Below, in pieces: positions 1,626 to 19,133 of a DNA stretch of 20,393 nucleotides. A program made the translations under genes and the position numbers. The notes beneath the pieces were generated by a model, which saw only the letters and a list, made by a program, of their open reading frames with translations, made no database searches and had not been told where the DNA came from. The first letter of the stretch is position 1. Every line of letters begins with the position of its first letter. The stretch is from a virus (Duplodnaviria; Heunggongvirae; Uroviricota; Caudoviricetes), in IMG/VR virus record IMGVR_UViG_2609459790_000003; one strand, written 5' to 3'.

Positions 1626-1661
1626 TTGCCAAAACAGAGAGAGCATTACTGTCTCTGGCAA
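1626..1661 (-). terminator. weak candidate intrinsic terminator overlapping the stop of the 95-aa ORF
   Basis: On the minus strand CAGAGA / UCUCUG form a 6-bp stem with an 11-nt loop, followed by UUUU; the stem is short. Confidence 0.25.
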
Positions 1662-1933
1662 TCTTTATCGCGATAACGCCTGAAGTACCCTCTCGCTTCC
1701 TCATCCATACCAAGAGCCGAATGAGTTCGCTTAACTGCCTGTCTTAAATCTCCGAATCTGTCTGTAGTTGCTGGTGGGCGTGCCGCCCTACGGATACATT
1801 CAGAGTGTCTGTTTGCTGCATGTTCACGTTCTTTATTGCCATCTGCCAGCGTCATGACTTCTGCCCATCGTGTGGCAGCTCTCCGGCATAGCCTTTTTGA
1901 CTCCAGCTCTTCAGCTTTCCTGTCACTTATCAT
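1646..1933 (-). CDS. hypothetical basic 95-aa protein
   Basis: ATG start with GAGAGG about 7 nt upstream; Arg/Glu-rich helical composition; lies 36 bp from iteron array A. No recognisable domain. Confidence 0.45.
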   Translation of the reverse strand: MISDRKAEELESKRLCRRAATRWAEVMTLADGNKEREHAANRHSECIRRAARPPATTDRFGDLRQAVKRTHSALGMDEEARGYFRRYRDKDCQRQ

Positions 1934-1968
1934 TTCTGCCTCTCAGACTATATAGATAAGCAAAAAGG

Positions 1969-2090
1969 TGTTGGTTCAGTTGGTTCAGTTGGTTCAATTT
2001 GTAAAGAGTATTGTTTTTAAAAGGATTATTCGCAAAAAGTGAACCAACACACCCCATTTTTGAACCAACAAAAAGAGGCCGTGAACCAAC
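1969..2090. repeat. iteron array A: six copies of the 9-mer GTTGGTTCA / TGAACCAAC
   Basis: Three tandem GTTGGTTCA at 1970-1996, an AT-rich spacer, then three TGAACCAAC at 2040, 2061 and 2082 (21-bp phasing). Positions 1969-2017 are a perfect reverse complement of 10572-10620. Confidence 0.85.
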
Positions 2091-2164
2091 ACGCCGTTTA
2101 AAAACCGCTAATTATGAGGGACATCCACCAACACAGGGCTTGTCTAGTGCTAGTTAGGTGCTGC

Positions 2165-2383
2165 TCACCGCGCACGGAGCGGCGCTGGTTTGCTCCAGCG
2201 ATATGCGGGGCTGGTCATCATTTCGCGGTACCGCCTGGCTATTACAGGGCCCTCTGCCAGCTGGCGCCTTAATTCCCGCAGTTCTGCCGGGCTGAGCTGG
2301 TAGCCGTCATGCTCCAGCTTGGCAATGGTCAGCAGCTCGATTTCTCGTGGTGTCATGGATTCCCCTCTGATGGTGATCGGCAT
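2165..2383 (-). CDS. hypothetical small protein
   Basis: Track ORF of 72 aa; the internal ATG at 2354-2356 (MTPREIELL..., 63 aa) has a GAGGGG Shine-Dalgarno and is the more likely start. Divergent from the AlpA-like gene at 2609. Confidence 0.4.
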   Translation of the reverse strand: MPITIRGESMTPREIELLTIAKLEHDGYQLSPAELRELRRQLAEGPVIARRYREMMTSPAYRWSKPAPLRAR

Positions 2384-2524
2384 TATATTGCCAGCCAGGG
2401 TGATTCTTCACTGGCCGGAGCCGTTGTGCGTGAAGTCTATGCGTGAACTCCATATGCTATGTGTTAAGTTACAGCTCAAAATGTCCTGTTCCGGTGGTAA
2501 CTTTTTTGGTAAACAGCGTTTTGG

Positions 2525-2559
2525 TGGATACCAACATGGATACCTCGCTTTTGGATACC
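2525..2559 (+). promoter_or_regulatory. three direct repeats of TGGATACC upstream of the AlpA-like gene
   Basis: TGGATACC at 2525, 2537 and 2552, 50-85 bp upstream of the ATG at 2609; candidate regulator or recombinase binding sites in a divergent promoter region. Confidence 0.3.
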
Positions 2560-2608
2560 GCACAAAGCCAGATTGTCACTATGCTTAATCTAAAGCAGAG
2601 GAGCCTCT

Positions 2609-2794
2609 ATGCGCCTTATCAAATTAAGCGAAGTCATGCTCAGAACGGGCTTCAAGAAAACGGCAATCTACTCATGGGTTAAGACGGGCACGTTTCCACA
2701 GCCAGTTAAAATTGGTAGATCAGCTAGATGGTCGCTTGAGGAGGTTGAAGCTTGGATCCAGAACAAACTTGATTCGCGGGCTGGCAACCAATGA
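2609..2794 (+). CDS. AlpA-family (excisionase-like HTH) regulator
   Basis: MRLIKLSEVMLRTGFKKTAIYSWVKTGTFPQPVKIGRSARWSLEEVEAWIQ matches the AlpA/Vis HTH pattern; AGGAG Shine-Dalgarno 7 nt upstream. Confidence 0.8.
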   Translation: MRLIKLSEVMLRTGFKKTAIYSWVKTGTFPQPVKIGRSARWSLEEVEAWIQNKLDSRAGNQ

Positions 2795-3383
2795 TTAGCT
2801 TTAATATCGAGTGGTGGATAGTCCATGGACAAGCTGATGGGCGCACTCGACGAAAACGATGCGCCAGGCGGACTGTGTCGCTCATAAACCGGGAGTTGGC
2901 CAGAGGACTTAGTTGTCCTTTGCAATTCTGCAGGTTCGCACGTGAAAGTAGCCAAAACCCTGCGAACCTGAGTGCAAACCTGCAACTGCGAACCACTGAG
3001 GTGGCCTCTCATAGCTGGTGGTCATACTGGATATTAATCAGGCCTGCCACAGGCATAACAATCCATAACAGACGCATCGCACTAACAATTACTAATAGGT
3101 CCGCTCGCAACACTAATTTTGACTAAGCCTGAACGCAATGCTCAGAAAGAACGAAGAATGGAATGAATCGTACCAGCATGTTGCTCCATGATTTTTACGT
3201 TCAAGACAGTTGCTTAATCTCGCCTCGCAATTCAGCCCCCTTGCCGCGATCTTGCCGTTATCGAGAAGTCTTTCTCCTTTCGGTTAATGCTATCGGTCTT
3301 CATATTACCAGCAGCATACGCCATCCGATTATTTCGATGCTACGCGCGCGTACTTGTCGCAAAATACCAGGCAAAGGCCAGAT

Positions 3384-3698
3384 TCAGAACGTCGTGATAA
3401 CCACCAGCACAACATGAGAGGTCATGTAACGCGATTTATCACACCAGATACATGTATTGGTGTACCCGCATAAAACATCGTCATAGCGCGTCCTGTGCGC
3501 ATATACGCCGATAATCAACACATCACCACCACTCTGTCTCATGTAGAGAACAGTTTTATGGTATCCCCCCGCCATCGTGTGCATACTGGTCGGACGTAGT
3601 TGCAAAATTTTTTGCAACTGATACCCCTCGCGCGCGTACTGGTCACGAAATTGGTGTTTTGCTGTGGCAGTGATATCAGAAAAATCTTCCTGTTTCAC
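3384..3698 (-). CDS. possible RelE/ParE-fold toxin-like ORF, probably degenerate
   Basis: The core GYHKTVLYMRQSGGDVLIIGVYAHRTRY resembles the RelE/ParE C-terminal motif. The ORF starts with GTG, has no Shine-Dalgarno, has no partner antitoxin ORF, and carries a 27-aa C-terminal extension. Confidence 0.3.
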   Translation of the reverse strand: MKQEDFSDITATAKHQFRDQYAREGYQLQKILQLRPTSMHTMAGGYHKTVLYMRQSGGDVLIIGVYAHRTRYDDVLCGYTNTCIWCDKSRYMTSHVVLVVITTF

Positions 3699-3825
3699 AT
3701 AAAGCGGATATGCGCGTACTGTAACGGCCCCATCAACTGGGAGCGGATTTGAAATCCCGCCCCGAATGTGTAGGCAATGTCACTTAACGTTTGTCGCATA
3801 CCTTCCAGAAAAAGCGATTCATGAA

Positions 3826-3857
3826 TAATAGGGGCATGAATGCCCGGCGTACCGGGC
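3826..3857 (-). terminator. candidate terminator downstream of the lipoprotein gene
   Basis: Overlapping short GC hairpins GGGCA-TGAA-TGCCC and CCCGG-CGTA-CCGGG just 3' of the lipoprotein stop on the minus strand, followed by a U-rich tract. Confidence 0.3.
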
Positions 3858-3864
3858 TTATTAG

Positions 3865-4563
3865 TTAATTTGGTGCTTTAGGGTCAACATTAAAAGTTAT
3901 ATCACCTTCTGTATTTTTCCCGGCATAGCTAGCGGCTATTCTCGCCAACCCTTTGTAATCAGCAATTCCATCAGACTGTTGCGAGACGACTGAGCTACCA
4001 ACTTTCCATAACATATTAATCTGCCTATTATTGAGATAAGCCTTGGCATCAAACGACTGGAGTATCACCCCTGCGCCGTAGAACGTGTCCGTCACAGTTG
4101 TGTTATACGCGCCAGTAATTCCATAAGTAGGCGTATAAACTGTTGTTGCCGTTCCAGTGGTATTAGCTGTACCGTAGCCACCACCATAACTATTGAACGT
4201 GGTGTTCGAGTTTCCGTACGTTGTTGCTGAGCTCACACCAGTTTGCCCGTATATTGGGATGGTTACATTACGAGTATTTGAAATGGCCCCGCTTCTCAAA
4301 AAGTTCAAGAGAATTACCTGGTCAGCCAATTTTTCATCTTTAACTTGTATATATCCTTGGCTTGATAAACTGGCGGCTACTACCGTAGCTATTTGAGTGT
4401 ATTCAATCTGTTTGGTGTTCCAAAGTTCTTGGCTTGCGGGGATGATCAAGAACTTCTTACCGACAGATTGCCCGGAGGATAAAGCATTGACCGTTACTAA
4501 CGGTTTTTGTACGCATCCAGCCAATAATGACAGGGATAATATTAAAAGAAGATTTTTAATCAT
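3865..4563 (-). CDS. lipoprotein, Thr/Gly/Tyr-rich (232 aa)
   Basis: Signal peptide with lipobox LLAGC; AGGTGA Shine-Dalgarno 7 nt upstream of the ATG; low-complexity G/T/Y/N repeats; gene is about 42% GC, lower than its neighbours. Confidence 0.85.
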   Translation of the reverse strand: MIKNLLLILSLSLLAGCVQKPLVTVNALSSGQSVGKKFLIIPASQELWNTKQIEYTQIATVVAASLSSQGYIQVKDEKLADQVILLNFLRSGAISNTRNVTIPIYGQTGVSSATTYGNSNTTFNSYGGGYGTANTTGTATTVYTPTYGITGAYNTTVTDTFYGAGVILQSFDAKAYLNNRQINMLWKVGSSVVSQQSDGIADYKGLARIAASYAGKNTEGDITFNVDPKAPN

Positions 4564-4713
4564 GACAATCTCACCTAAGAATTGCGTGGTTATAAATTAT
4601 CATCACTGTAAGCGAATGTAAGCCACAGGCTCGTAATGTGATATGGAATTTTTATAGTTGGCTCAATATCAGTATGCCGTCCTTGGCTATTATGGTTTTG
4701 TTAGTTAGAGCGT

Positions 4714-7440
4714 CTATTCCCATTCGCTAACATCTTTCATGCCACTGAGGGTAGCTACAATCCCGGCCCTTGTCAGTTTCACGAATTCTTCAGCCCCAAC
4801 GGCATCACGAATTGCTTTCATGGCAATTTTATTGGCCGAAAATCGTTTCTCTGCTGCGGCGATCGCTGCTGGTGATGCCCCTGCGCGCACTGCTTTTGTA
4901 GCTTCCTGAACGGCTTTCTCTATCGCATATCGACCACTTCTTGTCGCCCCAATCTTAGCCACAGTATTTCTCAGTGCGCCACCAGCAACCAAACCACTAA
5001 TCGAACCAATTACACCACCGCCAAAGCCTCCAGCGATCGCACCTGACTGTTGAACTCCGTTCATAATCACACCGACGATCTTTGGAAGGCCTGAATCGAG
5101 CGTTTTGAGAGCCTCAGTTGTTCTTCCCGTGCGCTCTACGTATCGCTGCGGTCTGGTGCTGGCTTTAGCGAGTACACCGAACTCTTTCATCATTCTACCG
5201 AGATCTGGCGCATGACGACTGATGGCGTTTACATTCTGCTGGGTCATGAGCTTGGCAAAATACTGGATACCAGACTCTTCACCGATTCCTCCCTTCTCTC
5301 CCTGCGCCACAGCATGCTGAAGAATAGATGCTATTGCTGGTTGGCGTTCTGCTTCCGGCAGCGCGGAGATAAGGCGGTGAAAAGCTCCCGTTCCAGTATT
5401 TGCGGATGCCTTAAGCGTATCGGCACCTTTTCTTACCATAGCGTCTGATGCGAGATCTCGACCAAAAACAGATTCGGCATTTTGTTTGGCGATAATGTAA
5501 CTTTTAGAGAGATCGTTAGCTTTCTGCCATTCTGTGAGGAAGTTTCCTTTTTCAGCCATGATGCGCATGTCATCAGTGATAGCTCTGCGCATTTCTCCGG
5601 CAATCCGGGCGGCATTGGCCTTACCTGCCCGGGTGTTTGCTTGTTCAGCATCAGCAAACTTAGCACGCCATGCCTTCATCCCGTCGAAGGTTATGCCGCC
5701 ACCTTGGTTGTTGGCAGCCTGAAACTGTTTCATCTCCGGGCTGAGTGGAACATTGGCTGCTTTTTCTGCTTGGACGACAGCCATCCCATTACTCATTTTC
5801 ATCCTTTCGCGTGGCATCGTGCTTCGCAGTTCTGCCCATGCCATATTCTCTGCTGTTTTCATATCACTGAGGCTCGCGATGATGCGCTCTTTAATTGCTG
5901 CGCTTTTTTCTGATGCGCTTCCAGACTCAGCACCGAAATCAGACAACTGCTTATTCAACTTTGAGGATATTTCATTGAAGGCCGTAAGGTGAGCATCCTG
6001 AACATTCCCAGGAGTTGATGCCAGAACACCTTCTGCTTGGGCAATTCCACGACTACCTGAGCGCATTCCAGGCGTCAGGGTGTTGATATTAATACCAGTG
6101 ATTTTCGCCGCCTTAGCGACATCATCTCTGACGTTTGATGCCTGCGATGCGATATGCTCTCGGCCTACGGCAGAACGCGCTGCTTTCGATACATCATTGG
6201 CGGTTTCCAGAGTATTTGCTGCCCCTAACACATGGCCTGATTGATTTGTATTACTCCGCAATACATCTCGCATTACGTCACTGGCTGTCTGTCCGCTCTT
6301 TATTAAAGCGCGTGCTCCTAGCGATCCTGCTAGGCCAATACCTGTCTCTTTTGCTAGGTCTTCTGGGCTGATCTGCCCGTTCTTTTGGGCGTTCACCAAT
6401 GTACCTGGCAGGTTTTCTGCCAACATACTAGCCACCTTTGTGGCCGCACGTTCAGCACGTGGAGCGTTGGCAACTGAAGAAGCTGCGGTAGCTGCCTTTC
6501 CTGCACCTAATCCTGTAATAAGGTAAGGTGCTAGCTGCTCACCAGCCTGCGCGTATGGATCTGTAGGTTGGTCTACTGGGCGAAAGACAGGTGATATGGG
6601 CGTGTATGTGCCATCACCCACACCAAGCTTCTGAGCTGCCCATGCTCCGGCTGATTGCGCCGCATTGACTACCCCCACGCCTGCGTCCATTACATCAAAC
6701 GGTATATTAGCAATCCCTCTGGCCATCTGCTCTGGCGCAGCTTTCAGTCCTGGCGAAAGATATTCCATCTCAGGATTAAGGTTAGACTTGGCTACTTGCT
6801 GCTGCGGTTCCCCGGCATTTTCATCGGCGAGAAACTGAGCTCTTTTCTGCTCCCATGAACTGGCTGTTGGTAGTCCTGCTTCTATGTTCTTAAATTGCTG
6901 ACGTTTTGCTTCCCATGCAGAAATATCTCCCACCTGAGAGATTTCTTTATCAAGCTCTGAGTAGTCAGGCTGCTGAAGATTGCGATGTTGACTGGTTTGT
7001 GCAAACTGCAAGATTTCACTGTCATCAGGGATTATTCCGGCATCTGCAAATTTACTTACGTAATTAGCCGTTTCATCTGGCAGTGTAGATTTACCGTTTC
7101 TGACGGCATTAATACGAGCATAGCCAGAATTATACCCAGCCAATGCCATACCTATATCACCAAATCGCTTCATTCCTTTATTGAGATGGTTTGCTGCGAT
7201 ATCCATTTGCTTTTCAAATGGCAGTGAGCGCGGATCAGTTCCACGATAACCAGCATCACTCATTACTGAGGGCATCAGTTGAGCAAATCCTCTAGCTCCT
7301 TTCGGTGACTCGGCACTTCCGTTACCACTAGATTCATTGCCAACTAATGTTTCCATCGTCCCTGATGGGAAACCATATTTTTCATCGAGATGACGGGAAT
7401 AGGCTTTCTGTTTTTCTGTCAGTTGTGCCATCATTGCCAT
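4714..7440 (-). CDS. 908-aa protein with N-terminal lytic transglycosylase (SLT) domain and long Ala/Gly/Gln-rich body
   Basis: N-terminus carries SLT motifs (ESSGN catalytic Glu-Ser, GFAQLMP, AGYNSGYARI). The remainder is helical and low-complexity with a Gly/Ala-rich C-terminus. Its start is adjacent to the stop of the upstream gene. Confidence 0.9.
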   Translation of the reverse strand: MAMMAQLTEKQKAYSRHLDEKYGFPSGTMETLVGNESSGNGSAESPKGARGFAQLMPSVMSDAGYRGTDPRSLPFEKQMDIAANHLNKGMKRFGDIGMALAGYNSGYARINAVRNGKSTLPDETANYVSKFADAGIIPDDSEILQFAQTSQHRNLQQPDYSELDKEISQVGDISAWEAKRQQFKNIEAGLPTASSWEQKRAQFLADENAGEPQQQVAKSNLNPEMEYLSPGLKAAPEQMARGIANIPFDVMDAGVGVVNAAQSAGAWAAQKLGVGDGTYTPISPVFRPVDQPTDPYAQAGEQLAPYLITGLGAGKAATAASSVANAPRAERAATKVASMLAENLPGTLVNAQKNGQISPEDLAKETGIGLAGSLGARALIKSGQTASDVMRDVLRSNTNQSGHVLGAANTLETANDVSKAARSAVGREHIASQASNVRDDVAKAAKITGININTLTPGMRSGSRGIAQAEGVLASTPGNVQDAHLTAFNEISSKLNKQLSDFGAESGSASEKSAAIKERIIASLSDMKTAENMAWAELRSTMPRERMKMSNGMAVVQAEKAANVPLSPEMKQFQAANNQGGGITFDGMKAWRAKFADAEQANTRAGKANAARIAGEMRRAITDDMRIMAEKGNFLTEWQKANDLSKSYIIAKQNAESVFGRDLASDAMVRKGADTLKASANTGTGAFHRLISALPEAERQPAIASILQHAVAQGEKGGIGEESGIQYFAKLMTQQNVNAISRHAPDLGRMMKEFGVLAKASTRPQRYVERTGRTTEALKTLDSGLPKIVGVIMNGVQQSGAIAGGFGGGVIGSISGLVAGGALRNTVAKIGATRSGRYAIEKAVQEATKAVRAGASPAAIAAAEKRFSANKIAMKAIRDAVGAEEFVKLTRAGIVATLSGMKDVSEWE

Positions 7441-8750
7441 CCCTTAAGTTTTGCCTGATAGTAACTTTCCGGCAGATAGCCATGTGCGGTCACATAATCC
7501 TTAACCAGTGAAGGATCCTGCAACAGCATTTTGGTATCAGTTTCTTCGTCCTTTGATTTGGTTACAGGAATACCGAGCCCGGCAATCTGTCGTTTCTGCA
7601 TTCGAATAATTACGTCCTGCGCTTTATTCAACTCTCGCAAAAATGCCTCATTGCTGGTTGCTGACTTAATGCCATTTTGAGATTGCATAAGGGCAGCCCT
7701 TTCCCCTTCGGTTGGGTTAGAGCCAAAAGTCCCTTTGAGGCTAGGCAGAATAACCTTTAGGTTGTATTCATCAGCTTTGGCGCGTAGGCTTCGTGTGTCT
7801 TCTGCTACATCAGGAAGGAATCCAAACCCCAGCGTCAGGGGGTTATAGTTCTGCGAGCGGGTAACGGCCGAAGGATGTTTCCCTACAATTCCCGCCAGTT
7901 CATGACCCACTTCAAGCGCAGAGTTCAAGGAGTCGATGTTACCTGTAACAGTATTAATTTTATCGTTCATCTTCTCCACTTTCGCCTGCTGTACCTTGCT
8001 CAGTTCAGCATTGAGCTTGTCTCTCTCGATGTCATTTTGAGCACGTCCAAGTCGTGCTTTCAGAACCATTTCTCTCGTGCGTAGTTGGTTATCGGATAGG
8101 ACTTTGAACTGCTCCATATCGAGACGCCGATTACCCTGTTCCGCATTAACCTGAGCATTATATGCAGATGTATCTGCGTTCTGCTGTGCAATGCTCTGCC
8201 CTTGCTGCTTCTCTTGAACACTAAAGTAACTATTTGGATCAGCATGGAGGTGGATGAGGTCAGTGATTCTGTTGAATTCCTGTGGGTCATTCTGCCAAGA
8301 CTGATAAACCTCTTCAGCAGGAAGACCAAATCGCTGTAATACTGGATTTGCCTGCTGAATGGCCTTCTGCATGGTCAGTGGATCTCCAGTTTGTGACGCA
8401 AGACGCAGATTCATGGCAGCGTCAGCGGTCTGTCGATTTTGCTCAGCATCAATGAATCCCATCTGTTTTTGAGAATCAGCCATAAACTGGGGATACTGGG
8501 CCATTAACTTCTGCACGCCAACACGATCATTATTAGCTACCGCACTACCCAACCGTGCCTGATATTCTTTTAGCTGCTGGGAAATTTGCGCCTGCTGATT
8601 AATCTCAGCAACGCCTCTTAGCCCCTGTAGCGCCATTAAACCTACGTTTGGCTGCTGCTGATACTGCACAGGCTGAGGAACGGAAGAACGAGGAGCATTA
8701 TCATTTTGCGGTGCCATGCTAGGCAGCCCGCCAAGTTGCCATGTCGTCAT
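7431..8750 (-). CDS. 439-aa Gln-rich coiled-coil protein
   Basis: ATG at 8748-8750 overlaps the upstream stop (TAATG); Q-rich helical composition; no catalytic motif seen. Confidence 0.85.
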   Translation of the reverse strand: MTTWQLGGLPSMAPQNDNAPRSSVPQPVQYQQQPNVGLMALQGLRGVAEINQQAQISQQLKEYQARLGSAVANNDRVGVQKLMAQYPQFMADSQKQMGFIDAEQNRQTADAAMNLRLASQTGDPLTMQKAIQQANPVLQRFGLPAEEVYQSWQNDPQEFNRITDLIHLHADPNSYFSVQEKQQGQSIAQQNADTSAYNAQVNAEQGNRRLDMEQFKVLSDNQLRTREMVLKARLGRAQNDIERDKLNAELSKVQQAKVEKMNDKINTVTGNIDSLNSALEVGHELAGIVGKHPSAVTRSQNYNPLTLGFGFLPDVAEDTRSLRAKADEYNLKVILPSLKGTFGSNPTEGERAALMQSQNGIKSATSNEAFLRELNKAQDVIIRMQKRQIAGLGIPVTKSKDEETDTKMLLQDPSLVKDYVTAHGYLPESYYQAKLKGWQ

Positions 8751-9427
8751 TAGAATCCAAGCCCCCCAACAAGACCAATAAGCCCACCACCAATAGCCCC
8801 GGCGACATTACCTATACCCGGAACAACGGAACCAAGTTGCGCACCCGCTAAAGCGCCTGATGCCGCCCCACCAATACCACGCGCAAGACTGGATGGCTGC
8901 TGCGCCTGACCTGCACGAATAGCGCCAAGCCCCTGCAAGAGTTGTCCGGTATTATTGGCGTAGTTTTGCCCTGCTGTTGCCTGCCCTGATGCCGCATTCA
9001 TCCCGACATTTAGCAGGTTTCCATAATTTTGCATTTGCCCACTAAGCCAATTGTTATAAAGCATGGGCGCAATGGAAGATAACTGGTTACTGGTAGCTGT
9101 TGAGCCAAGCCCCCCGGTAGCTTCTGCTGAGACAAGGTTCTGATAACGGGCCTGATCTGCCTGTGTTTTATATAAACCAGAACCAAAGAAATCATTCGCG
9201 GCTTTATTCTGCCCTTCCAGAGTCATCAGTCCTTGCAGTTGTTGTAAAGCAGGCAATCCGACTTCTGCATACGGCTTGAGATTATTCATCACCGTATTCC
9301 ACTGCTCGCGCTGCAAATCAATTGCCTGCTGCTGGGCCTTCGCCTGGGCTTTAGAGGCACCACCATCACCGCCTTTTTCGTATACGGCACGATTGAGATG
9401 TTTATGAGCTATATGGGTAATTAACAT
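8750..9427 (-). CDS. 225-aa protein with C-terminal glycine-zipper hydrophobic segment
   Basis: C-terminus GIGGAASGALAGAQLGSVVPGIGNVAGAIGGGLIGLVGGLGF; ATG overlaps the stop of the 153-aa gene. Confidence 0.85.
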   Translation of the reverse strand: MLITHIAHKHLNRAVYEKGGDGGASKAQAKAQQQAIDLQREQWNTVMNNLKPYAEVGLPALQQLQGLMTLEGQNKAANDFFGSGLYKTQADQARYQNLVSAEATGGLGSTATSNQLSSIAPMLYNNWLSGQMQNYGNLLNVGMNAASGQATAGQNYANNTGQLLQGLGAIRAGQAQQPSSLARGIGGAASGALAGAQLGSVVPGIGNVAGAIGGGLIGLVGGLGF

Positions 9428-9882
9428 TCGCTGAGTTCCTTATATTGTTGCCGTGTTAACTGATAAAGCGTTACGCCGACGGGTTTACCACATCTGATAT
9501 ATGCATCGGCCAGGTGACCAACACGGGTAGCGCCAAGCAAACGGATAATTGCCCGTCCGTATTTCGTGGTGTCAGGAACCATGGTGATGCTGTTAAGGAA
9601 TGGTGAGTTTTCGAGAAGCCATTTGCAGAACAATCGATGCCCTTGCAGTGCATATTCACCACGGAATCCGGGGTCGTACACCGCATGGCATTCAACAATG
9701 CTATGCCAGAAGTTACGCACTTCATGAACGCCTGTCAGCACTAATCCTTCGTAGATGCCGAGATATACCGCATCAGGCTTGATGTAGTACGTGTGCCCCG
9801 GCTCAACAATATTTTCGGTATTGCCAGGCTCGTTAAGAAAGGCCTGTAATCGCACCGGGTTATCAATAAATTTTAGTTCCAT
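9421..9882 (-). CDS. 153-aa protein, first large gene of the module
   Basis: ATG at 9880-9882, 16 nt after the stop of the small upstream ORF; compact globular composition; no motif recognised. Confidence 0.8.
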   Translation of the reverse strand: MELKFIDNPVRLQAFLNEPGNTENIVEPGHTYYIKPDAVYLGIYEGLVLTGVHEVRNFWHSIVECHAVYDPGFRGEYALQGHRLFCKWLLENSPFLNSITMVPDTTKYGRAIIRLLGATRVGHLADAYIRCGKPVGVTLYQLTRQQYKELSEC

Positions 9883-9898
9883 GCGGTGCCATCCGTTT

Positions 9899-10060
9899 TC
9901 ACATACAGCCTGCCAGCGCCTTATCTATTAACCCTCGTGCAATTTCATGCAGAGTTGGCGCTACTCCAATTCCTGATTTTTTACGCTGCTCTTCCTGAAT
10001 TTTCTTTATCGCTTCCATTTGCTTCTCACTTATCAATACCGGCTTTACTGAAATAGCCAT
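9899..10060 (-). CDS. 53-aa putative ribbon-helix-helix DNA-binding protein
   Basis: Below the ORF-track length cutoff. ATG at 10058-10060 with AAGGGGG 5 nt upstream; MAISVKPVLISEKQMEAIKKIQEEQRKKSGIGVAPTLHEIARGLIDKALAGCM has a strand, helix, G-x-T, helix layout. Confidence 0.45.
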   Translation of the reverse strand: MAISVKPVLISEKQMEAIKKIQEEQRKKSGIGVAPTLHEIARGLIDKALAGCM

Positions 10061-10075
10061 AACGCCCCCTTAGAA

Positions 10076-10099
10076 CTGTATAAAACAACAGTTATTATA
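10076..10099 (-). promoter_or_regulatory. candidate promoter (-10 TATAAT) with overlapping LexA-like box
   Basis: Minus-strand TATAAT at 10094-10099; immediately downstream lies aaCTGTataaaacaACAGtt (10074-10093), CTGT-N8-ACAG, closely resembling the dinD box. No good -35 hexamer. Confidence 0.4.
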
Positions 10100-10154
10100 G
10101 TTTCGCAAATCGCAATATTCATCATCGTAATTGCAAAATATGAAACAAATAGCA

Positions 10155-10188
10155 CAAAAAAATGCCACCGCTCAGTAGCTGGTGGCAT
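10155..10188 (-). terminator. rho-independent terminator closing the primase operon
   Basis: On the minus strand AUGCCACC / GGUGGCAU form an 8-bp stem with an 11-nt loop, followed by UUUUUUU. Confidence 0.5.
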
Positions 10189-10381
10189 CGTTCTGTGTGT
10201 CAGGTTTTGACAGGTTTTTTATGGACTCTAAAAACTATATTTATGGTGTCGCATTACTCTTCACGGCAGGCGCTTTTCAGTTCTGCCCTTGCTTCTGGCT
10301 CCATTGGTAATTTGATTCGCGATCAGCTATGCGGATGGTTTGCTGAACAGGCATAACAACTTCTCAGGGGCTGTTTTCTGA

Positions 10382-10458
10382 ACTACGAAAATTTCGTAGT
10401 GCTCACTTTCAAAAACGTCACGCCCTTGTACACAGGATTTTACGAAAGTCTCGTAAAA
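10382..10458. promoter_or_regulatory. two palindromes sharing a TACGAAA half-site
   Basis: ACTACGAAAATTTCGTAGT (10382-10400) and TTTTACGAAAGTCTCGTAAAA (10438-10458), between the terminator and iteron array B. Confidence 0.3.
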
Positions 10459-10508
10459 CACTCTCTGATGCCAGCCAGGTGTTGTGCGCATCAATTCAGT
10501 CACATTGT

Positions 10509-10620
10509 GTTGGTTCAAAATACCGTGTTGTTGGTTCAGTGTTGGTTCAATAAAAAGAATAAAATCATTATAAAACAATACTCTTTACAAATTGAACCAA
10601 CTGAACCAACTGAACCAACA
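10509..10620. repeat. iteron array B: six copies of GTTGGTTCA / TGAACCAAC
   Basis: GTTGGTTCA at 10509, 10530 and 10541, then three tandem TGAACCAAC at 10593-10619. Inverted copy of array A; lies 25 bp beyond the primase stop codon. Confidence 0.85.
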
Positions 10621-10644
10621 CCTTTTCTACGCACATGAAGAAGC

Positions 10645-13404
10645 TCATTCTTCAGATGAGTTATAATCTCCTGGCTGGTAATTGAGTACATAAACGTTTA
10701 TTTGTCGTCCCTGAATACGTGGTGATTTTCTTTGGTATCCACGACCGCTGTTTGGTGGGGTTAGCATCCCGGCTTTTTTCAACACTTCAGCAAACTGTTT
10801 TGCGTTGAAACCACATGCGATCTCCTTTTCAAATGTGGCCGGGAATGTGTAGAAAATCATTGGGCTTTCGTCATGTTCTCCACGCTGACGGTATCCGGCT
10901 AAATCTTTGATGGGCAAATCTGCCGGGCTGTATGGAAATGGTGCAAAACGGCTAAGCCCATAGGCATTAAGAAATGCCTCCGTTTGTTCAATAATCTGCT
11001 GATGTTCTTTGTTACCTGTGCCGAACTCGCGCAACCATGCGTTATAGCTGTGCTGTATCGCATCACGGCATGTCTGAGCATCCCAGCCTGTTACAACCTC
11101 GCCTAACAGCAATGCGGCCTCCAGAATGGCAAATCGCGCGGCTACACGGTGAACCTGCTCACCATAATCGGATGGGATCAGACTTCTCCATCTGCTTTCG
11201 CAGTCACGAACAGTTTTAATTGCCTGTTGCTGGTGGTCTGCCAGCCATTTAATCCACTCACGCCCGGCTGCGCCGTGGTGATGCTGGTAAGCGTCTTTCA
11301 GTGCGTCTGCGTGCTGTTTTCCGTTCTGGTAATCGTGAAAGCGTACTGCTTTACTCAACGGAATATTCAGCAGTCGCACCAGTTGCCCGGCTTTGGTTTT
11401 TCGCCCGGAAGTAGCGATAAATGTTTCTAAATCCATTTCTCCGGTGCTGATTGCCACTGTACGCCAGCGTTTTAGATCCCGGTTTCCACCATCTTTAGCG
11501 CCTTGCAGTTTCCCTACACCGTTAAATAACGCATAGGCAGACTGTGAAACGCTGACAGGATCTGCGCCCTGACCAACTTCATCAAGCGGCATTAGTCCGT
11601 CATTGTGGGCGGCAGCTTCATTTGCCAGCCCCAGCGCGGTTCCGTACCACGTCAGCCGCAGTAAATCAGGGTTGCCGTATAAGCTGCTCGCCACGTTTGC
11701 CGTGGTGGTCTTACCTGCGCTCGACTGCTCATAGAAATGAATGCCGAACCCGTCAGCGCCCACCAGCCCAATCAATGGCGCTGCCAGTGCTGCGCCGATC
11801 CCGGTCATCATTGAATAGTTACCAAAGGCCAGACGCGCCACGCTATCACGCCAGCTTTTCGCGCTCCCTGAGATAGTATATCCGGCTGCGGCTGAGCTTC
11901 TCCCGCTGAACAGCACAGGATTTTCAGGTGTTCCGATGATTTCCCCATCAGGCATGATGTACGCTCCGCATTGCCAGCCAGTGGCATGAGCAACACGCCA
12001 CAATTCACGAGAGCCACTGCGTTGTAGCCAGTCTGCCAGTATTGCTCTGAGGCTGCTTTTGGTCGTGACATTTACCCCACCAGCTTTAAGTGTGCGCCAT
12101 CCTTCACGTTCACCAATATCAGCCAGTGGAATGGCAGCGGTTGTCGGCGTTTCAGAACCAAACGACAGCCAGCGAAGAATGAGATACTGGTCTTTATCGT
12201 CTCTGCCAGTACCGATAACGCTTAACGGAGAACATAACCAGCTTTCGTTATTGATGATTTCTCCACTCTGGCTGTCAGCTCTCGGAGATACCCAATAAAT
12301 ACCATCCTCGCGGCTTTCTATTCTTGGTTTCAGTGGGTCGGTATCCATAACCTTAAAATCGCTTCCTTCAATGGTCTGTGGCTCCTGTTTCACGCCATTA
12401 CCCTGTGGTTGGTACATTGATTTATTGAACGCTTCTGTAGCGCATTTAATGCCGTGTTTTTGGTGGTAATCATTCCAGTCGGCTTTGTGATCTGTCGGGG
12501 GTAATGCCACCCATCCAGAAACAGATAAAGCTGCTTTTTCTGCTGCTATTCTCCCCGTGTTTTGTCTTCCTTCGCTGTGGTCGTTATCCGCAGCAATGAT
12601 GATTTGTGCTGAAGGAAATTTATCCCGCAGTACCTGGGCGACATATAACAGGTTCCCGGCATCAATCGCCGCCACTGTCAGCGCCTCTGGACGAATTAAA
12701 TGGGCAGATAATGCCGTTGCCAGCCCTTCTGCGATTAAGATGCTCTGTGTTGTTTCTGGTGCGTTTATGGCGTGATATGCCCCTCGCTTTGCTGAACCTG
12801 TCAGGAGTCTTTTTTCACCATGTGAGGTAATAGTCTGTGCTGCTGTTACTGCGCCGGATTTATCCACCAGCGCCAGCAACAGAGATCCATCGGGCAACAC
12901 GGGGAATGTAAAATCACCTACCCCTTTCGCAACCAGATAATCAGATTTGCCGTTTACAGCCTTTCTGCGCATGTCATCAAACTGACGGGAAAACGTATCC
13001 CGTCTTTGTTGTTCGTCCTTCTCTGCCCTTTTCAGGCGCTCCTGTTCGCGTCGCTGGCGCTCGGTTTCCAGTTGTTCCCGTTTCTGGCTGGTGGCTTCTG
13101 GTGTTTCCGTTGTCCGGTAATCAATACCCAGAACATCAGCGGCAAGAAGCGCCGCCTCTGTTGTGTCGCAGTTATTTACGCGTTTAATTAAATCCAGCCC
13201 ATCACCAGCGCCGCACTGATTACAGATGAAGCTACCGCGCCCGTTGTCATCGAACCGGAATCGATCTTTACCCCCACATGCAGGGCAGGGAGCATGACGG
13301 CGTGGAGAGTCAGGGACATTTATGTTCAGGCAGCCCAGCACATGAGGCCAGTTGTTTTCAGACGCACTGATAACCTGACGGATAAGATCAATGTTTCGCA
13401 TCAC
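10645..13404 (-). CDS. bifunctional DNA primase / SF3-type helicase (P4 alpha-like)
   Basis: N-terminal zinc ribbon CPACGGKDRF...CNQCG, central primase region, C-terminal P-loop (SSAGKTT). The track start at 13404 is GTG; the ATG is the next codon (13399-13401). Confidence 0.9.
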   Translation of the reverse strand: MMRNIDLIRQVISASENNWPHVLGCLNINVPDSPRRHAPCPACGGKDRFRFDDNGRGSFICNQCGAGDGLDLIKRVNNCDTTEAALLAADVLGIDYRTTETPEATSQKREQLETERQRREQERLKRAEKDEQQRRDTFSRQFDDMRRKAVNGKSDYLVAKGVGDFTFPVLPDGSLLLALVDKSGAVTAAQTITSHGEKRLLTGSAKRGAYHAINAPETTQSILIAEGLATALSAHLIRPEALTVAAIDAGNLLYVAQVLRDKFPSAQIIIAADNDHSEGRQNTGRIAAEKAALSVSGWVALPPTDHKADWNDYHQKHGIKCATEAFNKSMYQPQGNGVKQEPQTIEGSDFKVMDTDPLKPRIESREDGIYWVSPRADSQSGEIINNESWLCSPLSVIGTGRDDKDQYLILRWLSFGSETPTTAAIPLADIGEREGWRTLKAGGVNVTTKSSLRAILADWLQRSGSRELWRVAHATGWQCGAYIMPDGEIIGTPENPVLFSGRSSAAAGYTISGSAKSWRDSVARLAFGNYSMMTGIGAALAAPLIGLVGADGFGIHFYEQSSAGKTTTANVASSLYGNPDLLRLTWYGTALGLANEAAAHNDGLMPLDEVGQGADPVSVSQSAYALFNGVGKLQGAKDGGNRDLKRWRTVAISTGEMDLETFIATSGRKTKAGQLVRLLNIPLSKAVRFHDYQNGKQHADALKDAYQHHHGAAGREWIKWLADHQQQAIKTVRDCESRWRSLIPSDYGEQVHRVAARFAILEAALLLGEVVTGWDAQTCRDAIQHSYNAWLREFGTGNKEHQQIIEQTEAFLNAYGLSRFAPFPYSPADLPIKDLAGYRQRGEHDESPMIFYTFPATFEKEIACGFNAKQFAEVLKKAGMLTPPNSGRGYQRKSPRIQGRQINVYVLNYQPGDYNSSEE

Positions 13405-13759
13405 CGTACCCCACGTGGTCTATAGCGTTTGCGATATGGCTAACCAGCATCTGCCACTTGGTTATTCCGTAATCAGTCAGCATGCCATCATTGTTTAGCC
13501 ACATATCAAATTCAGCGGTTGTCGCAAGTTTCCACTTATCGCCGTGGACAGTCCTCATTGCTGGGTACATGAATGCGCAAATCAGATCACAAACATCTGA
13601 CGGCTTCAGAGATGTAGTAATGGTGCGTCCCTCTGGCGTCTGAATTGCCATTTTCTCTTCACCAGTAGAATGAAGGTTATGAATCCACACAGCACCAGCA
13701 ATCTTTGCCACCTGCTCTCCGATTGCGGAGCTAAGTGCCATTTCTGCATTTTCACGCAT
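13388..13759 (-). CDS. hypothetical protein (123 aa)
   Basis: GGAGG Shine-Dalgarno 6 nt upstream of the ATG; stop overlaps the primase start; ATG overlaps the upstream stop. Confidence 0.7.
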   Translation of the reverse strand: MRENAEMALSSAIGEQVAKIAGAVWIHNLHSTGEEKMAIQTPEGRTITTSLKPSDVCDLICAFMYPAMRTVHGDKWKLATTAEFDMWLNNDGMLTDYGITKWQMLVSHIANAIDHVGYGDAKH

Positions 13760-14093
13760 GAGAACCTCCCGCTACAGTTGCGCCCATGTCATTAACCATG
13801 CTTTGCCATATCTCACGCCCGACGTCAGTCAATCCGTCCTTAGTGACGCAACGATCAAGAAGCTCGATCCCCACGGTTTCCCACTGCGGGTAGAACACTT
13901 TCATGGCTGCCAGTGTGTAGCTATCGATCAGGCTGCGAACGCCTTTTACTCCATTGACGATTTCCACACGGACGGCCTCGCCGTCCGCATCAACCATGAA
14001 ATAGTCCCCGCCGCTGGTGGAGGTAATGTGGTTATACAGTGCCGACGCATACTTATTTGCCAGCGCATTCAGTCGGAAATTTTTAGTAATCAT
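13752..14093 (-). CDS. hypothetical protein (113 aa)
   Basis: GAGGA Shine-Dalgarno 7 nt upstream of the ATG at 14091-14093; follows the 200-aa gene after a 10-nt gap. Confidence 0.7.
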   Translation of the reverse strand: MITKNFRLNALANKYASALYNHITSTSGGDYFMVDADGEAVRVEIVNGVKGVRSLIDSYTLAAMKVFYPQWETVGIELLDRCVTKDGLTDVGREIWQSMVNDMGATVAGGSHA

Positions 14094-14103
14094 GGTTCCA
14101 TCC

Positions 14104-14706
14104 TCAGTGCGTCACTGGTTCCGCTGGCATGCCGTTTTCATTCAGTTCAGCTATAAAGCTGTTGTGAAGTTCAGCAAGCGTTTCACGACCAAATGGAGTC
14201 AGTGCTCCTTGTTCCACATCCATCATGGCTCTGTAGAAAATGATGGCGCGTTCTGTGCCAGACTCGATGCCAAAACGTTCTATCATCGCGCCCTCAATGT
14301 TGTTTGCCATAGCGAGGCGCTCTGCTACTGGATACAGCGGCATGGCGACGATGCCGTTGGAATAAACAGCCACTTCGGAAGGATTGCCAGTATCATCAAT
14401 GATGCTGACAGTGCCGTTTTCCTCTCTCATTTCCAGCATGAATACTGTTGCGATCAGCCATCTCCACATAATGACGTTATGCTGTGATGTGTAATCGAAA
14501 TATCCCTGGTTGCCGCCATCGGCTATAGCGAGATGTATTGACATACCTTCATCTGGTTTATCGTCATAATCCCCGGCATCCAGACGATTTACGGCATCAA
14601 TATATGAGACGGCCTCAACGCGTTCTGTCATGCCATCGTTGCTGCGGTACATGATGTTTACGCCGTCAGGCGTTGCTTCTGCATGGAAAGTTAAGAAATT
14701 ATTCAT
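14104..14706 (-). CDS. hypothetical protein (200 aa)
   Basis: Track ORF extends to 14811; the ATG at 14704-14706 (MNNFLTF...) overlaps the upstream TAA in an ATGAATAA junction and is the more likely start. Confidence 0.7.
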   Translation of the reverse strand: MNNFLTFHAEATPDGVNIMYRSNDGMTERVEAVSYIDAVNRLDAGDYDDKPDEGMSIHLAIADGGNQGYFDYTSQHNVIMWRWLIATVFMLEMREENGTVSIIDDTGNPSEVAVYSNGIVAMPLYPVAERLAMANNIEGAMIERFGIESGTERAIIFYRAMMDVEQGALTPFGRETLAELHNSFIAELNENGMPAEPVTH

Positions 14707-14920
14707 GTTTCGCCTCGCCTGAATGATTCTGTAACTCATATTTGCCCAACAATTCGTCCGCTTCCTGAATAGCTTCTGGTACGCCATTGAGCAGTGACAT
14801 AACCGCGCCAATCATTAATTTGTCTCTGTTGCTGGGGCTGGCCCCTTCAAGCCAGAACCCTAAAACAGTCTGAACCTGTTCGATGCGACATTGCGCTTCA
14901 ATGAGCTGGATGTTGGTCAT
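14699..14920 (-). CDS. hypothetical small protein (73 aa)
   Basis: ATG overlaps the upstream stop (ATGA); acidic helical composition. Confidence 0.65.
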   Translation of the reverse strand: MTNIQLIEAQCRIEQVQTVLGFWLEGASPSNRDKLMIGAVMSLLNGVPEAIQEADELLGKYELQNHSGEAKHE

Positions 14921-15180
14921 TTCGCACTCTCCGCATCGATTAAACTGATATCTATCAGAGAGGTAACTTTTTGTAGCCAGCTAGTGATTACTGTCGCCTG
15001 TTCCCCTCCCACCGATGGAAGAATCTCATTCATCACATGAACCAGACCTGTGCGCGCTCTGGTAAGCCGTTCAGTCGTGCGATCTGCAAGAGTGAATGTG
15101 TCTGGATATGGCTCTTCACGCCCCAGCAATGATTCAATTTCCAGCTCACACGGATGACGATAAATTAAGTTGATATTCAT
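14917..15180 (-). CDS. hypothetical small protein (87 aa)
   Basis: ATGA start/stop overlap with the upstream gene. Confidence 0.65.
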   Translation of the reverse strand: MNINLIYRHPCELEIESLLGREEPYPDTFTLADRTTERLTRARTGLVHVMNEILPSVGGEQATVITSWLQKVTSLIDISLIDAESAK

Positions 15181-15371
15181 TTTTCACCCCCAAGAATTAC
15201 CAGCTCGGCACGGGCATCGTTAACCAAAGATGAGCACGCTTTAATCGCATCCACGACATCAGCAGCGTCCATTTCTTCAGCCGAAAGACTGACAGCAACC
15301 AGGACAGCCGCTGCTTGCTCGATTAATTGAAGTGCGGACGTAAGTCGAGGGGCATTAATTGAGTTATTCAT
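15177..15371 (-). CDS. hypothetical small protein (64 aa)
   Basis: Track ORF starts at 15428; the ATG at 15369-15371 ([10 protein letters not shown]...) overlaps the upstream TAA in an ATGAATAA junction. Confidence 0.6.
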   Translation of the reverse strand: MNNSINAPRLTSALQLIEQAAAVLVAVSLSAEEMDAADVVDAIKACSSLVNDARAELVILGGEK

Positions 15372-15582
15372 TGGTTGCCCCCGTTTTTCCTGGCATTTCG
15401 CCACCTTCCAGCAGGAAATGAACGTCACGAACGGCGAGATCCAATATCGCGAGTAACGCCTTCAGTTTTTCGTCTCGTGAGGGAGAGTTGCTCACCAGAA
15501 TGTCATTAATCACTTCTGTCAGTGTGATGATCTGGCTTGTACGTTCGAGGGGATCCATATGCACATCGTAGGTTTTAATCAT
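15364..15582 (-). CDS. hypothetical small protein (72 aa), alternative reading of the 3' end of the long ORF
   Basis: ATG at 15580-15582 with GGAGG 7 nt upstream, overlapping the TAA of the alternate-frame 64-aa ORF (ATGATTAA). It is in frame with the 355-codon ORF, so it may instead be that ORF's C-terminus. Confidence 0.45.
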   Translation of the reverse strand: MIKTYDVHMDPLERTSQIITLTEVINDILVSNSPSRDEKLKALLAILDLAVRDVHFLLEGGEMPGKTGATNE

Positions 15583-17433: not shown

Positions 17434-17445
17434 TTTCAGTCTCCG

Positions 17446-19038: not shown

Positions 19039-19133
19039 TGCGTCACCTTTTACGCTGCGCCTTATTTTGTGATTGAGCCAGGCGGTAAGGCTTCCCGCTT
19101 TTCGCCCCGTCGAGCTAGGCTCAATCTATTCAG

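Follow-up and report, generated by a model that had tools for sequence, protein, structure and literature searches.

A P22-type ejection-protein cassette in an EcCIMP1-family satellite island: a candidate DNA-delivery module

The 20,393-nt sequence analyzed here (IMG/VR record IMGVR_UViG_2609459790_000003; this whole stretch is called the window, and all positions refer to it) carries an island of 19.3 kb, inserted in the host chromosome between dinD and yicC. Within this island lies a cassette of five tightly packed open reading frames (ORFs), all on the minus strand (4714-10060), four of which encode homologues of the proteins gp14, gp7, gp20, and gp16 of phage P22. We consider it nearly certain that the island is an EcCIMP1-family phage-inducible chromosomal island (PICI), a satellite of P22-like (Lederbergvirus) podoviruses integrated at yicC/dinD by a swapped integrase module. 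For the cassette we propose that the satellite loads its own DNA-injection proteins into the particles of its helper, a reading to which we assign a probability of roughly 0.5. The corresponding genes EcCIMP1_017-019 were read as possible packaging genes (PMC11773190), and the value of the present work lies in the re-reading of this putative packaging module and in the pattern found across the lineage. New here are the purifying selection on the cassette, an island-borne gp20 lineage, the gp20 plus gp16 core, a promoter of its own with a predicted LexA box, and tape-measure protein (TMP), baseplate-hub, or SLT cargo in the same slot of relatives. In the open-access literature the EcCIMP1 paper was the only one found on satellites with ejection or tape-measure genes, and no account was found there of the cassette as a complete, selected set of ejection proteins (E-proteins), of its SOS-box promoter, or of the swapping of E-protein, tape-measure, and hub cargo. 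The terms “ejection”, “injection”, and “transglycosylase” are absent from the EcCIMP1 paper, in which the SOS-box promoter and the cargo pattern are likewise undescribed (PMC11773190).

The cassette and its carrier island

A preliminary description of this DNA, made from the sequence without database searches, had proposed five co-directional genes forming an ejection-protein cassette. All five ORFs were confirmed, and Pfam and PHROG profiles placed the four large products in P22 families and not in unrelated ones. The operon starts with the gene of a 53-aa protein (9899-10060), followed after a gap of 16 nt by the gene of a 153-aa gp14 homologue (DUF2824; 9421-9882; PF11039, 1.7e-60; phrog_651, 2.2e-65), a non-virion head-morphogenesis factor. 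Then come a 225-aa gp7-type ejection protein (8750-9427; PF25688 P22_gp7, 1.9e-72, above the curated cutoff; phrog_598, 1.2e-69) and a 439-aa gp20-type ejection protein (7431-8750; PF16928 Inj_translocase, 3.7e-22, 79.5 bits at a cutoff of 29.7; phrog_917, 9e-44, with phrog_917/2534 at about 1e-43). The last gene (4714-7440, alternative start at 7434) encodes a 908-aa fusion of an SLT domain (aa 17-119; Pfam, 1.1e-12) with a gp16 “DNA transfer protein” part (aa 189-864; phrog_770, 1.8e-120). The lytic transglycosylase predicted earlier at the N-terminus of the largest protein was thus recovered, and inspection of the sequence found its motifs E36-S37, GFAQLM, and AGYNSG all present. PF26808 (Phage_P22_gp16) matched close relatives (82% identical). 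A PDB sequence search with the cassette gp14, gp7, gp20, and gp16 gave no matches to solved structures. At three junctions (ATGTTAA, TAATG, and ATGGCAATGA) the stop codon of one gene overlaps the start codon of the next, which makes translational coupling plausible. The gene order 14-7-20-16 and the overlaps are identical to those of P22, Kapi1, and Dewey. Judged by the profile matches, which lie far beyond chance, there is no doubt that the four cassette proteins are clear homologues of P22 gp14, gp7, gp20, and gp16.

Profile searches with the 53-aa protein gave no family match. It had been called ribbon-helix-helix (RHH)-like, an assignment that is not confirmed. The AlphaFold2 model (pLDDT 77.6) has coil or extended structure at residues 1-11 and helices at 12-29 and 37-52, a topology compatible with beta-alpha-alpha and with RHH; hhalign against Arc/Mnt returned a probability of 1.7%, and neither a PDB profile search nor Foldseek with the model gave an RHH or other match. 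Homologues with 42-100% identity stand first in the cargo operon at 93 loci. Going by this distribution, the 53-aa gene is an island-backbone gene outside the P22 module, and from the model its product is possibly a small DNA-binding regulator.

The best genomic match of the window was strain 214-4 with 99.9% identity; a 19.6-kb alignment to it has four gaps and is otherwise 99.8% identical. Positions 1853-17887 form a single 16,057-bp block with 98.9% identity to EcCIMP1 (GenBank OR778291), which comprises PerC, alpA_1, a lipoprotein gene, the cassette in full, origin and primase, the genes of the immunity RNAs, AntA, and the greater part of alpA. Escherichia coli MP1, the host of EcCIMP1, was among the cassette matches with 99.4%. 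EcCIMP1 was described as a PICI of this strain (Pick, Stadel & Raivio, ISME J 2025; PMC11773190). It circularises and excises in the presence of the P22-like phage Kapi1 and not otherwise, and it requires its own int and alpA; its cycle has alpA as master regulator, needed for excision and transfer, and Kapi1 transduces EcCIMP1 specifically at low frequency (PMC11773190). Comparing the two islands, the same gene order was observed and both lack capsid and lysis genes, whereas the integrase module, the neighbouring gene, and the far end, all outside the shared block, differ. Our island lies between yicC and dinD (att ATTATGTACACC..TATGTACA), EcCIMP1 at tRNA-Thr (att TCCTATTATC). The island is a close variant of EcCIMP1 and not a new element; new are its integration module and site. 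As the regulatory and replication block is 98.9% identical, we infer that helper-dependent induction, excision, and transfer extend to this island, in which, however, the integrase module differs.

As in other PICIs, we found an integrase with att repeats, AlpA beside int, an own primase and origin, a length of 19.3 kb, and no full set of virion or lysis genes. This agrees with the earlier observation of P4-type replication and integration genes without head assembly: integrase, AlpA, primase, and origin were identified, and Pfam and PHROG searches of the ORFs found no capsid, portal, terminase, tail, or lysis genes in the 19.3-kb island. Nor did any island ORF match sid, psu, or delta in these databases. 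The four cassette genes are the only virion-type genes of the island and do not stand in a phage late operon. To this extent the earlier view of a cassette out of its normal context holds; the arrangement is less odd than claimed, since phage Dewey has the same SLT-gp16 architecture. Apart from the gp14-gp7 segment and a single 60-nt stretch the window has nothing in common with Kapi1, the terminase region included. That the element is a satellite and not a prophage remnant, as suggested before, is borne out by the near-identical EcCIMP1, which was experimentally found to be helper-dependent and transduced by Kapi1.

Conservation, promoter, and cargo slot

Using the island of Leclercia adecarboxylata (L036; related loci are given by L-numbers) for comparison, the ratio of nonsynonymous to synonymous substitutions (dN/dS) was 0.031 for the 53-aa gene, 0.073 for gp14, 0.074 for gp7, 0.067 for gp20, and 0.084 for SLT-gp16, with dS of at least 1. 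By these ratios all five cassette genes are under strong purifying selection. Amino acid identity between the E. coli and Leclercia islands was 81-88% for the cassette and 69% for the primase. The full cassette (variant A) was intact in 72 of 5,426 complete E. coli genomes, among which full-length gp20 was confined to variant-A islands. A further 185 of these genomes carry variant B, which agrees with variant A (98-99% identity) from the 53-aa gene through gp14 and gp7 to about nt 160 of gp20. The junction of this recombination lies inside the 5' end of gp20 (window 8590-8750), beyond which variant B has an unrelated gp20/gp16 pair; BLASTP between the two gp16 types gave no match. Variant D (L173, E. 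coli, yicC/dinD) has promoter, LexA box, 53-aa gene, gp14, and gp7 in common with the others, together with a 432-aa gp20, a 705-aa protein without Pfam match at the gp16 position, and a primase ending in DUF5906 and not DUF927. This variant is very common in E. coli, its gp20 being listed in 231 blocks of the assembly collection. Other islands lack gp14 (L168) or both gp14 and gp7 (ECONIH5, L087/L090, L172), and gp20 plus gp16 were present in every E-protein island examined; by this comparison the pair is the invariant core of the cassette. With the same primase and the 53-aa gene preceding it, this architecture recurred at several att sites and in at least 8 genera. This recurrence, together with purifying selection and a dedicated promoter, ruled out that the cassette is the deletion remnant of a prophage, an outcome which the preliminary description had named as one that would speak against it.

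The distance to phage genes differs along the cassette. Identity to Kapi1 was 83% for gp14, 57% for gp7, 26% for gp20, and 24% for gp16, and gp7 was 55-57% identical to the versions of P22, Kapi1, and Dewey. At the DNA level the gp14-gp7 segment is 81% identical to Kapi1, and gp14 is up to 97% identical to prophage gp14 genes, which shows exchange with phages; partial P22-like prophage matches are numerous in E. coli genomes. For gp16 the best phage matches reached 46-52% (Dewey, Huey, CUS-3, epsilon34). The SLT-gp16 fusion itself is also present in Dewey and Huey, with 46% identity to Dewey gp16 over 97% of the length. For gp20 the best match among 50,697 phage records was 28%. Its closer relatives were found on islands from a metagenome (84%), Salmonella (82%), Pectobacterium (72%), and another metagenome (49%), followed by complete P22-like prophages of Serratia (46%) and Providencia (38%) and by the island variant D of E. 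coli (38%). Every island-borne relative examined had the primase and the 53-aa gene upstream. In every context examined at 49% identity or more the gp20 lineage was thus island-borne, and we take it for an island-specific lineage and not a recent capture.

The cassette would be transcribed from a promoter of its own. About 85 nt 5' of the 53-aa gene are kept across genera and cargo types and end in an invariant TATAAT, as seen in an alignment of 19 islands. In the window the promoter covers 10074-10100 (minus strand), with the -10 element TATAAT at 10095-10100 and, beginning 1 nt after it, a predicted LexA/SOS box AACTGTTGTTTTATACAGTT at 10074-10093. The multiple alignment of the 19 islands further revealed upstream promoter or operator elements TTTCAT..TTGCAAT..TGA(T/A)(C/T)ATTGCG with a weak -35 (10101-10150, minus strand). 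We infer a sigma-70-type promoter private to the cassette operon, with the predicted LexA box over the transcription start. The motif CTGT-N8-ACAG occurred twice in the window (0.29 expected), the second site being the SOS box of dinD. This box (AACTGTATTTATATACAGTT, 869-888, ~240 nt from the island att) was the positive control of the LexA scan, for which a weight matrix was built from 17 E. coli boxes of the literature, with dinD held out. The held-out dinD box scored 25.9 bits, the cassette site 18.9 bits, and the next-best site of the window 9.9 bits; the maximum in shuffled sequences had its 95th percentile at 14.6 bits, and the cassette score lies within the training range of 13.4-27.0 bits. 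A canonical box was found in almost all E-protein islands examined, including the E. coli variants A-D, with 14.2 bits in Leclercia, 15.9 in Salmonella, 21.3 in L172 (gp20 plus gp16 only), and 17.3 in L116. Exceptions were L114 and L168 with a shorter box and the Pectobacterium island L167, borderline at 12.7 bits. Scanning the regions upstream of gp14 in true prophages, neither a LexA box nor such a promoter was detected.

Searches with the primase turned up relatives in about 70 species of Enterobacterales and on 205 IMG/VR contigs. The 53-aa gene was located in 91 loci from other genomes, and in about 80 of the 91 it is followed by TMP, TMP-SLT, hub, SLT internal-virion, or E-protein genes, such cargo being absent from only about ten. 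The cargo consists of full-length tape-measure proteins, often after a conserved 108-aa ORF; of TMP-SLT fusions, some accompanied by a baseplate hub (phrog_196) and others not, one such module also including a small terminase (phrog_1482); of SLT-bearing “lytic tail” or internal-virion proteins (phrog_2013, 1044, 992, 3003, 684); or of P22 E-protein sets. Capsid, portal, and tailspike genes were never among the recurring cargo of these loci. What the slot proteins would have in common is a single trait, namely that they exit the particle along with the DNA or make up the channel at the tail tip. Individual examples are L124 (11938-16905: TMP/SLT of 566 aa, baseplate hub, 221-aa protein, small terminase phrog_1482, and 267-aa protein), L126 (10191-15439: TMP-SLT of 666 aa, phrog_817 “tail fiber”, and hub), and L102 (8591-13488: SLT internal “head protein” phrog_992 of 837 aa and phrog_1145 of 632 aa). 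The small terminase suggests a packaging route for some of these islands. In L017 and L024 the cargo is enclosed by both att copies, in L008 and L010 it precedes the distal one, and the sister islands adjoin chromosomal tRNA-Thr or tRNA-Arg genes or a yicC-type site. The idea of a PICI embedded in its helper, with the TMP/SLT genes belonging to an interrupted prophage (concept: PMC10111431), was rejected on these two grounds.

Another primase sub-lineage (L051, L054, L058, L068) is without the 53-aa gene and has, 3' of the primase, three plus-strand ORFs of ~390-500, 404-438, and 553-573 aa, possibly genes for capsid or packaging. About 200 islands of the primase lineage (L084-L163) appear in IMG/VR as viral contigs, many of 17-23 kb and mostly cut from isolate genomes. 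Their tape-measure or ejection genes may trigger the viral call, and such contigs are satellites and not phages. The islands as a whole suggest, by the injection cargo in the same slot, that satellites bring their own DNA-delivery parts. Tentatively, and with somewhat more doubt than confidence, we extend this to a widespread satellite lineage of Enterobacterales, marked by the Toprim/DUF927 primase, which would keep a partly SOS-controlled operon with a conserved promoter and a gene of ~53 codons and would swap the cargo to suit the helper morphotype: P22 E-proteins for podoviruses, tape measure (with the 108-aa ORF) and/or baseplate hub for long-tailed phages, and SLT internal proteins for others. 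Capsid and tail would come from the helper, and the satellite's own injection conduit would decide on cell entry and bypass exclusion.

The delivery reading and its alternatives

According to the delivery reading, DNA damage that induces the helper prophage would also lift LexA repression of the 53-aa gene, gp14, gp7, gp20, and SLT-gp16. Island proteins would be made during helper procapsid assembly and taken in like the P22 E-proteins, with gp14 serving as a non-virion assembly factor, and island concatemers would be packaged by headful, the island with 19.3-20 kb being about half of the 39.4 kb of Kapi1. In the next cell the particle would eject the island gp7, gp20, and gp16 to form a trans-envelope DNA conduit, while the SLT domain would cut peptidoglycan. 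As the matched pair, gp20 and gp16 would govern both the sensitivity to exclusion of the SieA type and the need for inner-membrane factors of the host. The private gp20/gp16 pair would give the satellite entry into cells which block the injection proteins of the helper, among them lysogens of phages that could serve as helpers, and delivery would no longer depend on the particular P22-like phage from which the capsid came. The equivalent injection parts of other phage types, namely TMP, baseplate-hub, or SLT proteins, would in sister islands be driven by this promoter together with the 53-aa gene. P22 capsids work with entire foreign E-protein sets, gp16 and gp20 have to match as a pair, and SieA exclusion acts on these two (PMC10461980). 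Because of this P22 SieA study an injection step by island E-proteins is plausible, and a benefit is suggested.

We are aware that several points weigh against this reading. That island E-proteins enter virions is a prediction from sequence. E-proteins of helper and island would unavoidably mix in the same procapsid pool, so that any gain would be shared with helper genomes, and mismatched gp16/gp20 assemble into P22 hybrids of which the particles are non-infectious (PMC10461980). Transduction of EcCIMP1 by Kapi1 is very inefficient, with a yield of about 5e3 per ml, and a Kapi1-like prophage was present in only 2 of 21 EcCIMP1 strains (PMC11773190). The Kapi1 titre is unaffected by the presence or deletion of EcCIMP1 (PMC11773190), for which reason the E-proteins, if incorporated, bring Kapi1 no measurable cost or benefit. 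No recognisable packaging (pac) site or small terminase was found in the island. The 584-nt region 5' of the cassette, searched for mimicry of a late promoter or pac site, showed no meaningful similarity to phages, although short pac sites would escape such a search. The LexA box is a prediction, and SOS/LexA control of the operon is probable. In ~40% of the related islands the box is one nucleotide shorter and scores poorly (6-8 bits); SOS control is therefore not universal in the lineage. Finally, the region next to pri is a known accessory and defence hotspot of PICIs, the site of Tai (tail assembly inhibition) systems (PMC11364771).

This hotspot position is also the starting point of the rival explanation that the products act in interference or defence, the E-proteins (TMP or hub in sister islands) serving as dominant-negative spoilers of injection or contributing to superinfection immunity. 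It draws further on the non-infectious P22 particles made with mismatched gp16 or gp20 (PMC10461980) and on the immunity to Kapi1, which EcCIMP1 raises in Kapi1 lysogens and for which no known defence system accounts (PMC11773190); PADLOC found no known defence system in our island either. We nevertheless consider it unlikely, since the Kapi1 titres of induced lysogens are unchanged by EcCIMP1, the E-proteins carry no export signals, and a poison needs neither gp14 nor a full, co-adapted, and strongly conserved set of four genes. Moreover, the predicted LexA-repressed promoter argues against expression in uninduced lysogens, when exclusion is needed, and the lipoprotein encoded downstream is a simpler candidate for the immunity phenotype. 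More doubtful still is an insurance by helper complementation, in which the spare genes would permit mobilisation by defective or incompatible P22-like prophages without working injection genes. The same logic was proposed by the EcCIMP1 authors for alpA_1, which can replace the Kapi1 excisionase (PMC11773190). Most EcCIMP1 strains are without a Kapi1-like prophage, foreign E-protein sets work in P22 capsids, and the many partial P22-like prophages seen in E. coli genomes would fit the idea as well; it leaves unexplained why recurrence is limited to injection parts, with capsid, portal, and tailspike always missing, and why the island-borne gp20 clade (at least 49% identity) is unlike that of resident prophages.

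The published suggestion of a packaging module, by which island DNA would be diverted into helper capsids or its packaging there made possible, has in its favour that the slot 3' of pri is the position of packaging genes in other PICIs (PMC11773190) and that one sister sub-lineage has the small terminase in this operon. Every cassette protein was strongly assigned to ejection families, however, and none resembles terminase, Rpp, Ppi, or a capsid-size factor. The E-proteins of P22 are also dispensable for DNA packaging, and we rate this suggestion as very improbable. An inert remnant, left by recombination of a P22-like prophage with a P4-like island and persisting by hitch-hiking, would account for the gp14-gp7 exchange with phages. 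It is effectively refuted by selection and conservation: dN/dS of 0.03-0.08 at saturated dS, intact ORFs in 72 genomes, and one architecture at several att sites in at least 8 genera behind a dedicated conserved promoter do not suit hitch-hiking DNA. The further proposal of the preliminary description, a repurposed envelope-penetrating apparatus, found no support.

If the delivery reading is true, the satellite and not the helper would determine the host range and how far superinfection exclusion is resisted when DNA is injected. This would bear on how regulators of virulence like PerC spread through E. coli, Salmonella, and related bacteria and on the question why phage lysogens stay open to satellites. 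The wider reading for the lineage would amount to a new relationship between satellite and helper, in which parts are donated as well as stolen, and to a natural set of interchangeable injection modules. EcCIMP1 and Kapi1 form a working laboratory system, which makes the idea directly testable.

Further island features and comparison with known systems

Along minus-strand transcription the island is ordered int, AlpA, AntA/DUF4222, Ash/C4/isrK, small ORFs, primase, iterons, terminator, cassette, lipoprotein, alpA_1 (opposite strand), and PerC. At the dinD side it ends in the distal att copy ATTATGTACACCCTTATGTACA (1126-1147), a 22-nt direct repeat with copies 19.3 kb apart in strain 214-4. This is the single exact match in the window (0 expected); the partner copy adjoins int 58-79 nt past the window end. 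Islands of other genera are bounded by the related motif TGTACACAAGGGTGTAC. The “Bro-N” ORF at 1-837 is dinD itself. The P4-type tyrosine integrase (19134-20393, minus strand; Pfam Arm-DNA-bind_3, Phage_int_M, Phage_integrase) is followed by an int-alpA RNA motif (19059-19125, minus strand; Rfam RF02996, 60.6 bits at a gathering score of 35.8), AlpA (17877-18080, minus strand; Phage_AlpA, 2.2e-8), and an AntA-family antirepressor (16600-17433, minus strand; AntA, 3.6e-21; phrog_5817), and the island also holds DUF4222 and several small ORFs. The “Ash” ORF of 355 aa (15364-16431, minus strand) has its Phage_ASH match at aa 124-232, covering exactly the same DNA and strand as the C4 antisense RNA (15823-15910, minus strand; Rfam, 81.1 bits at a gathering score of 45) and isrK (15973-16050, minus strand; 69 bits at a gathering score of 50). 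The “Ash protein” may thus in part be a translation of conserved RNA genes; its counterpart in MP1 is annotated as a pseudogene. The primase-helicase (10645-13404, minus strand; phrog_1139, 1.5e-178), the marker gene of the lineage, has Pfam Zn ribbon, Toprim, and DUF927 domains; Zn ribbon and Toprim_3 are common to the P4 alpha type, and the C-terminal part is DUF927. Directly after its stop codon lies a putative replication origin with GTTGGTTCA iterons, three direct and three inverted around an AT-rich spacer (10507-10621). The inverted 9-nt iterons TGAACCAAC at 10587-10621 number three here and two in strain 214-4, a 9-nt copy-number difference that makes up one of the four gaps of the alignment.

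Between origin and cassette promoter an uncharacterised unit (10164-10460, minus strand) was noted, which ends in a strong terminator at 10164-10179. The terminator scan hit (10179-10164) lies in an inverted repeat, and stem-loop and T-run together (10153-10197, minus strand) close the upstream transcription unit before the cassette promoter. A 22-nt stretch of the unit, TTTTTTATGGACTCTAAAAACT at 10215-10236, is repeated beside isrK at 16082-16103 and opens, on the plus strand, a hydrophobic ORF of 29 codons (MDSKNYIYGVALLFTAGAFQFCPCFWLHW); another small RNA, a target of C4, or a small peptide of toxin-like type may lie here. On the other side of the cassette, directly 3' of gp16, a 232-aa predicted lipoprotein is encoded (3865-4563, minus strand; MIKNLLLILSLSLLAGC..., signal peptide ...LSLLAG|C), followed by a terminator-like hairpin at 3832-3845. 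It had no match in Pfam, PHROGs, PADLOC, or phage tblastn, yet islands of MP1 and of Salmonella (L165, 14190-14888) likewise keep it next to this type of cassette. Its position is roughly that of sieA in P22. A SieA homologue 3' of gp16 was considered and rejected: by BLASTP neither the lipoprotein nor the downstream genes of variants B and C are similar to P22 SieA. The lipoprotein is a candidate for the superinfection immunity which EcCIMP1 gives Kapi1 lysogens. Further on stand the second AlpA-family gene (alpA_1 of EcCIMP1; 2609-2794, plus strand; Phage_AlpA, 1.9e-13), with the same protein accession in MP1, and the accessory gene of a PerC-family regulator (1646-1933, minus strand; PerC, 2.3e-27), whose EcCIMP1 homologue represses the enterocyte effacement locus (PMC11773190). 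The 60-nt stretch shared with Kapi1 (1535-1594) lies directly 3' of the PerC gene and outside the block shared with EcCIMP1; it is 93% identical to part of the Kapi1 antirepressor gene Kapi1_032 (Kapi1 13227-13286, opposite orientation).

Compared with genes 14-7-20-16 of P22 and their counterparts in Sf6, HK620, CUS-3, Kapi1, and Dewey, the cassette has homologous proteins, the same order, and overlapping junctions, with identities of 24-83% for gp14, about 55% for gp7, 26-28% for gp20, and 24-52% for gp16. In contrast to P22 it is not part of a late operon with the needle gene on one side and sieA/tailspike on the other, and it has its own promoter with a predicted LexA box and the extra 53-aa gene. 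Portal, coat, and gp4/10/26 are missing upstream and the tailspike downstream; instead, primase and 53-aa gene precede the cassette and the lipoprotein gene follows it. The preliminary description had seen both P22 and T7 mirrored in the cassette. For P22 this was upheld by homology and order, whereas for T7 it reduces to analogy. T7 gp14, gp15, and gp16 form an outer-membrane pore, a periplasmic tunnel, and an inner-membrane part (PMC8954989), and the cassette would by analogy do the same job; in both, the proteins become larger along the series, and the largest starts with a lytic transglycosylase. Sequence homology to the three T7 proteins was found only in the SLT domain (phrog_342 “internal virion protein with endolysin domain”, aa 9-217).

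With P4 the island has in common the P4-type integrase with its Arm-binding domain, AlpA, the C4/CI-type RNA, the Zn-ribbon/Toprim primase with an iteron origin, and the “Ash” region; unlike P4, it is without sid, psu, and delta, its helicase part is DUF927, and the helper proven for EcCIMP1 is a P22-like headful podovirus and not a P2-like cos myovirus. Known satellites remodel or steal helper capsids (P4, the Staphylococcus aureus pathogenicity islands, and the PICI-like elements), redirect packaging (Rpp, TerS), or build capsids and steal tails (capsid-forming PICIs). To our knowledge, no satellite supplies proteins that carry DNA across the envelope of the recipient. The Tai genes occupy the same slot next to pri in related Pectobacterium-type PICIs and likewise deal with tail or virion assembly of the helper, but Tai acts in defence and no homology to a virion component is described for it (PMC11364771), whereas the island genes encode full-length homologues of ejected virion proteins. 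Classical Gram-negative PICIs (EcCICFT073, EcCIEDL933) and capsid-forming PICIs have the same int-alpA-pri-ori backbone, PerC-like accessory genes, and a helper-exploitation module 3' of pri; where those islands carry packaging redirection by Rpp/TerS or capsid and connector genes, the lineage described here carries DNA-injection parts.

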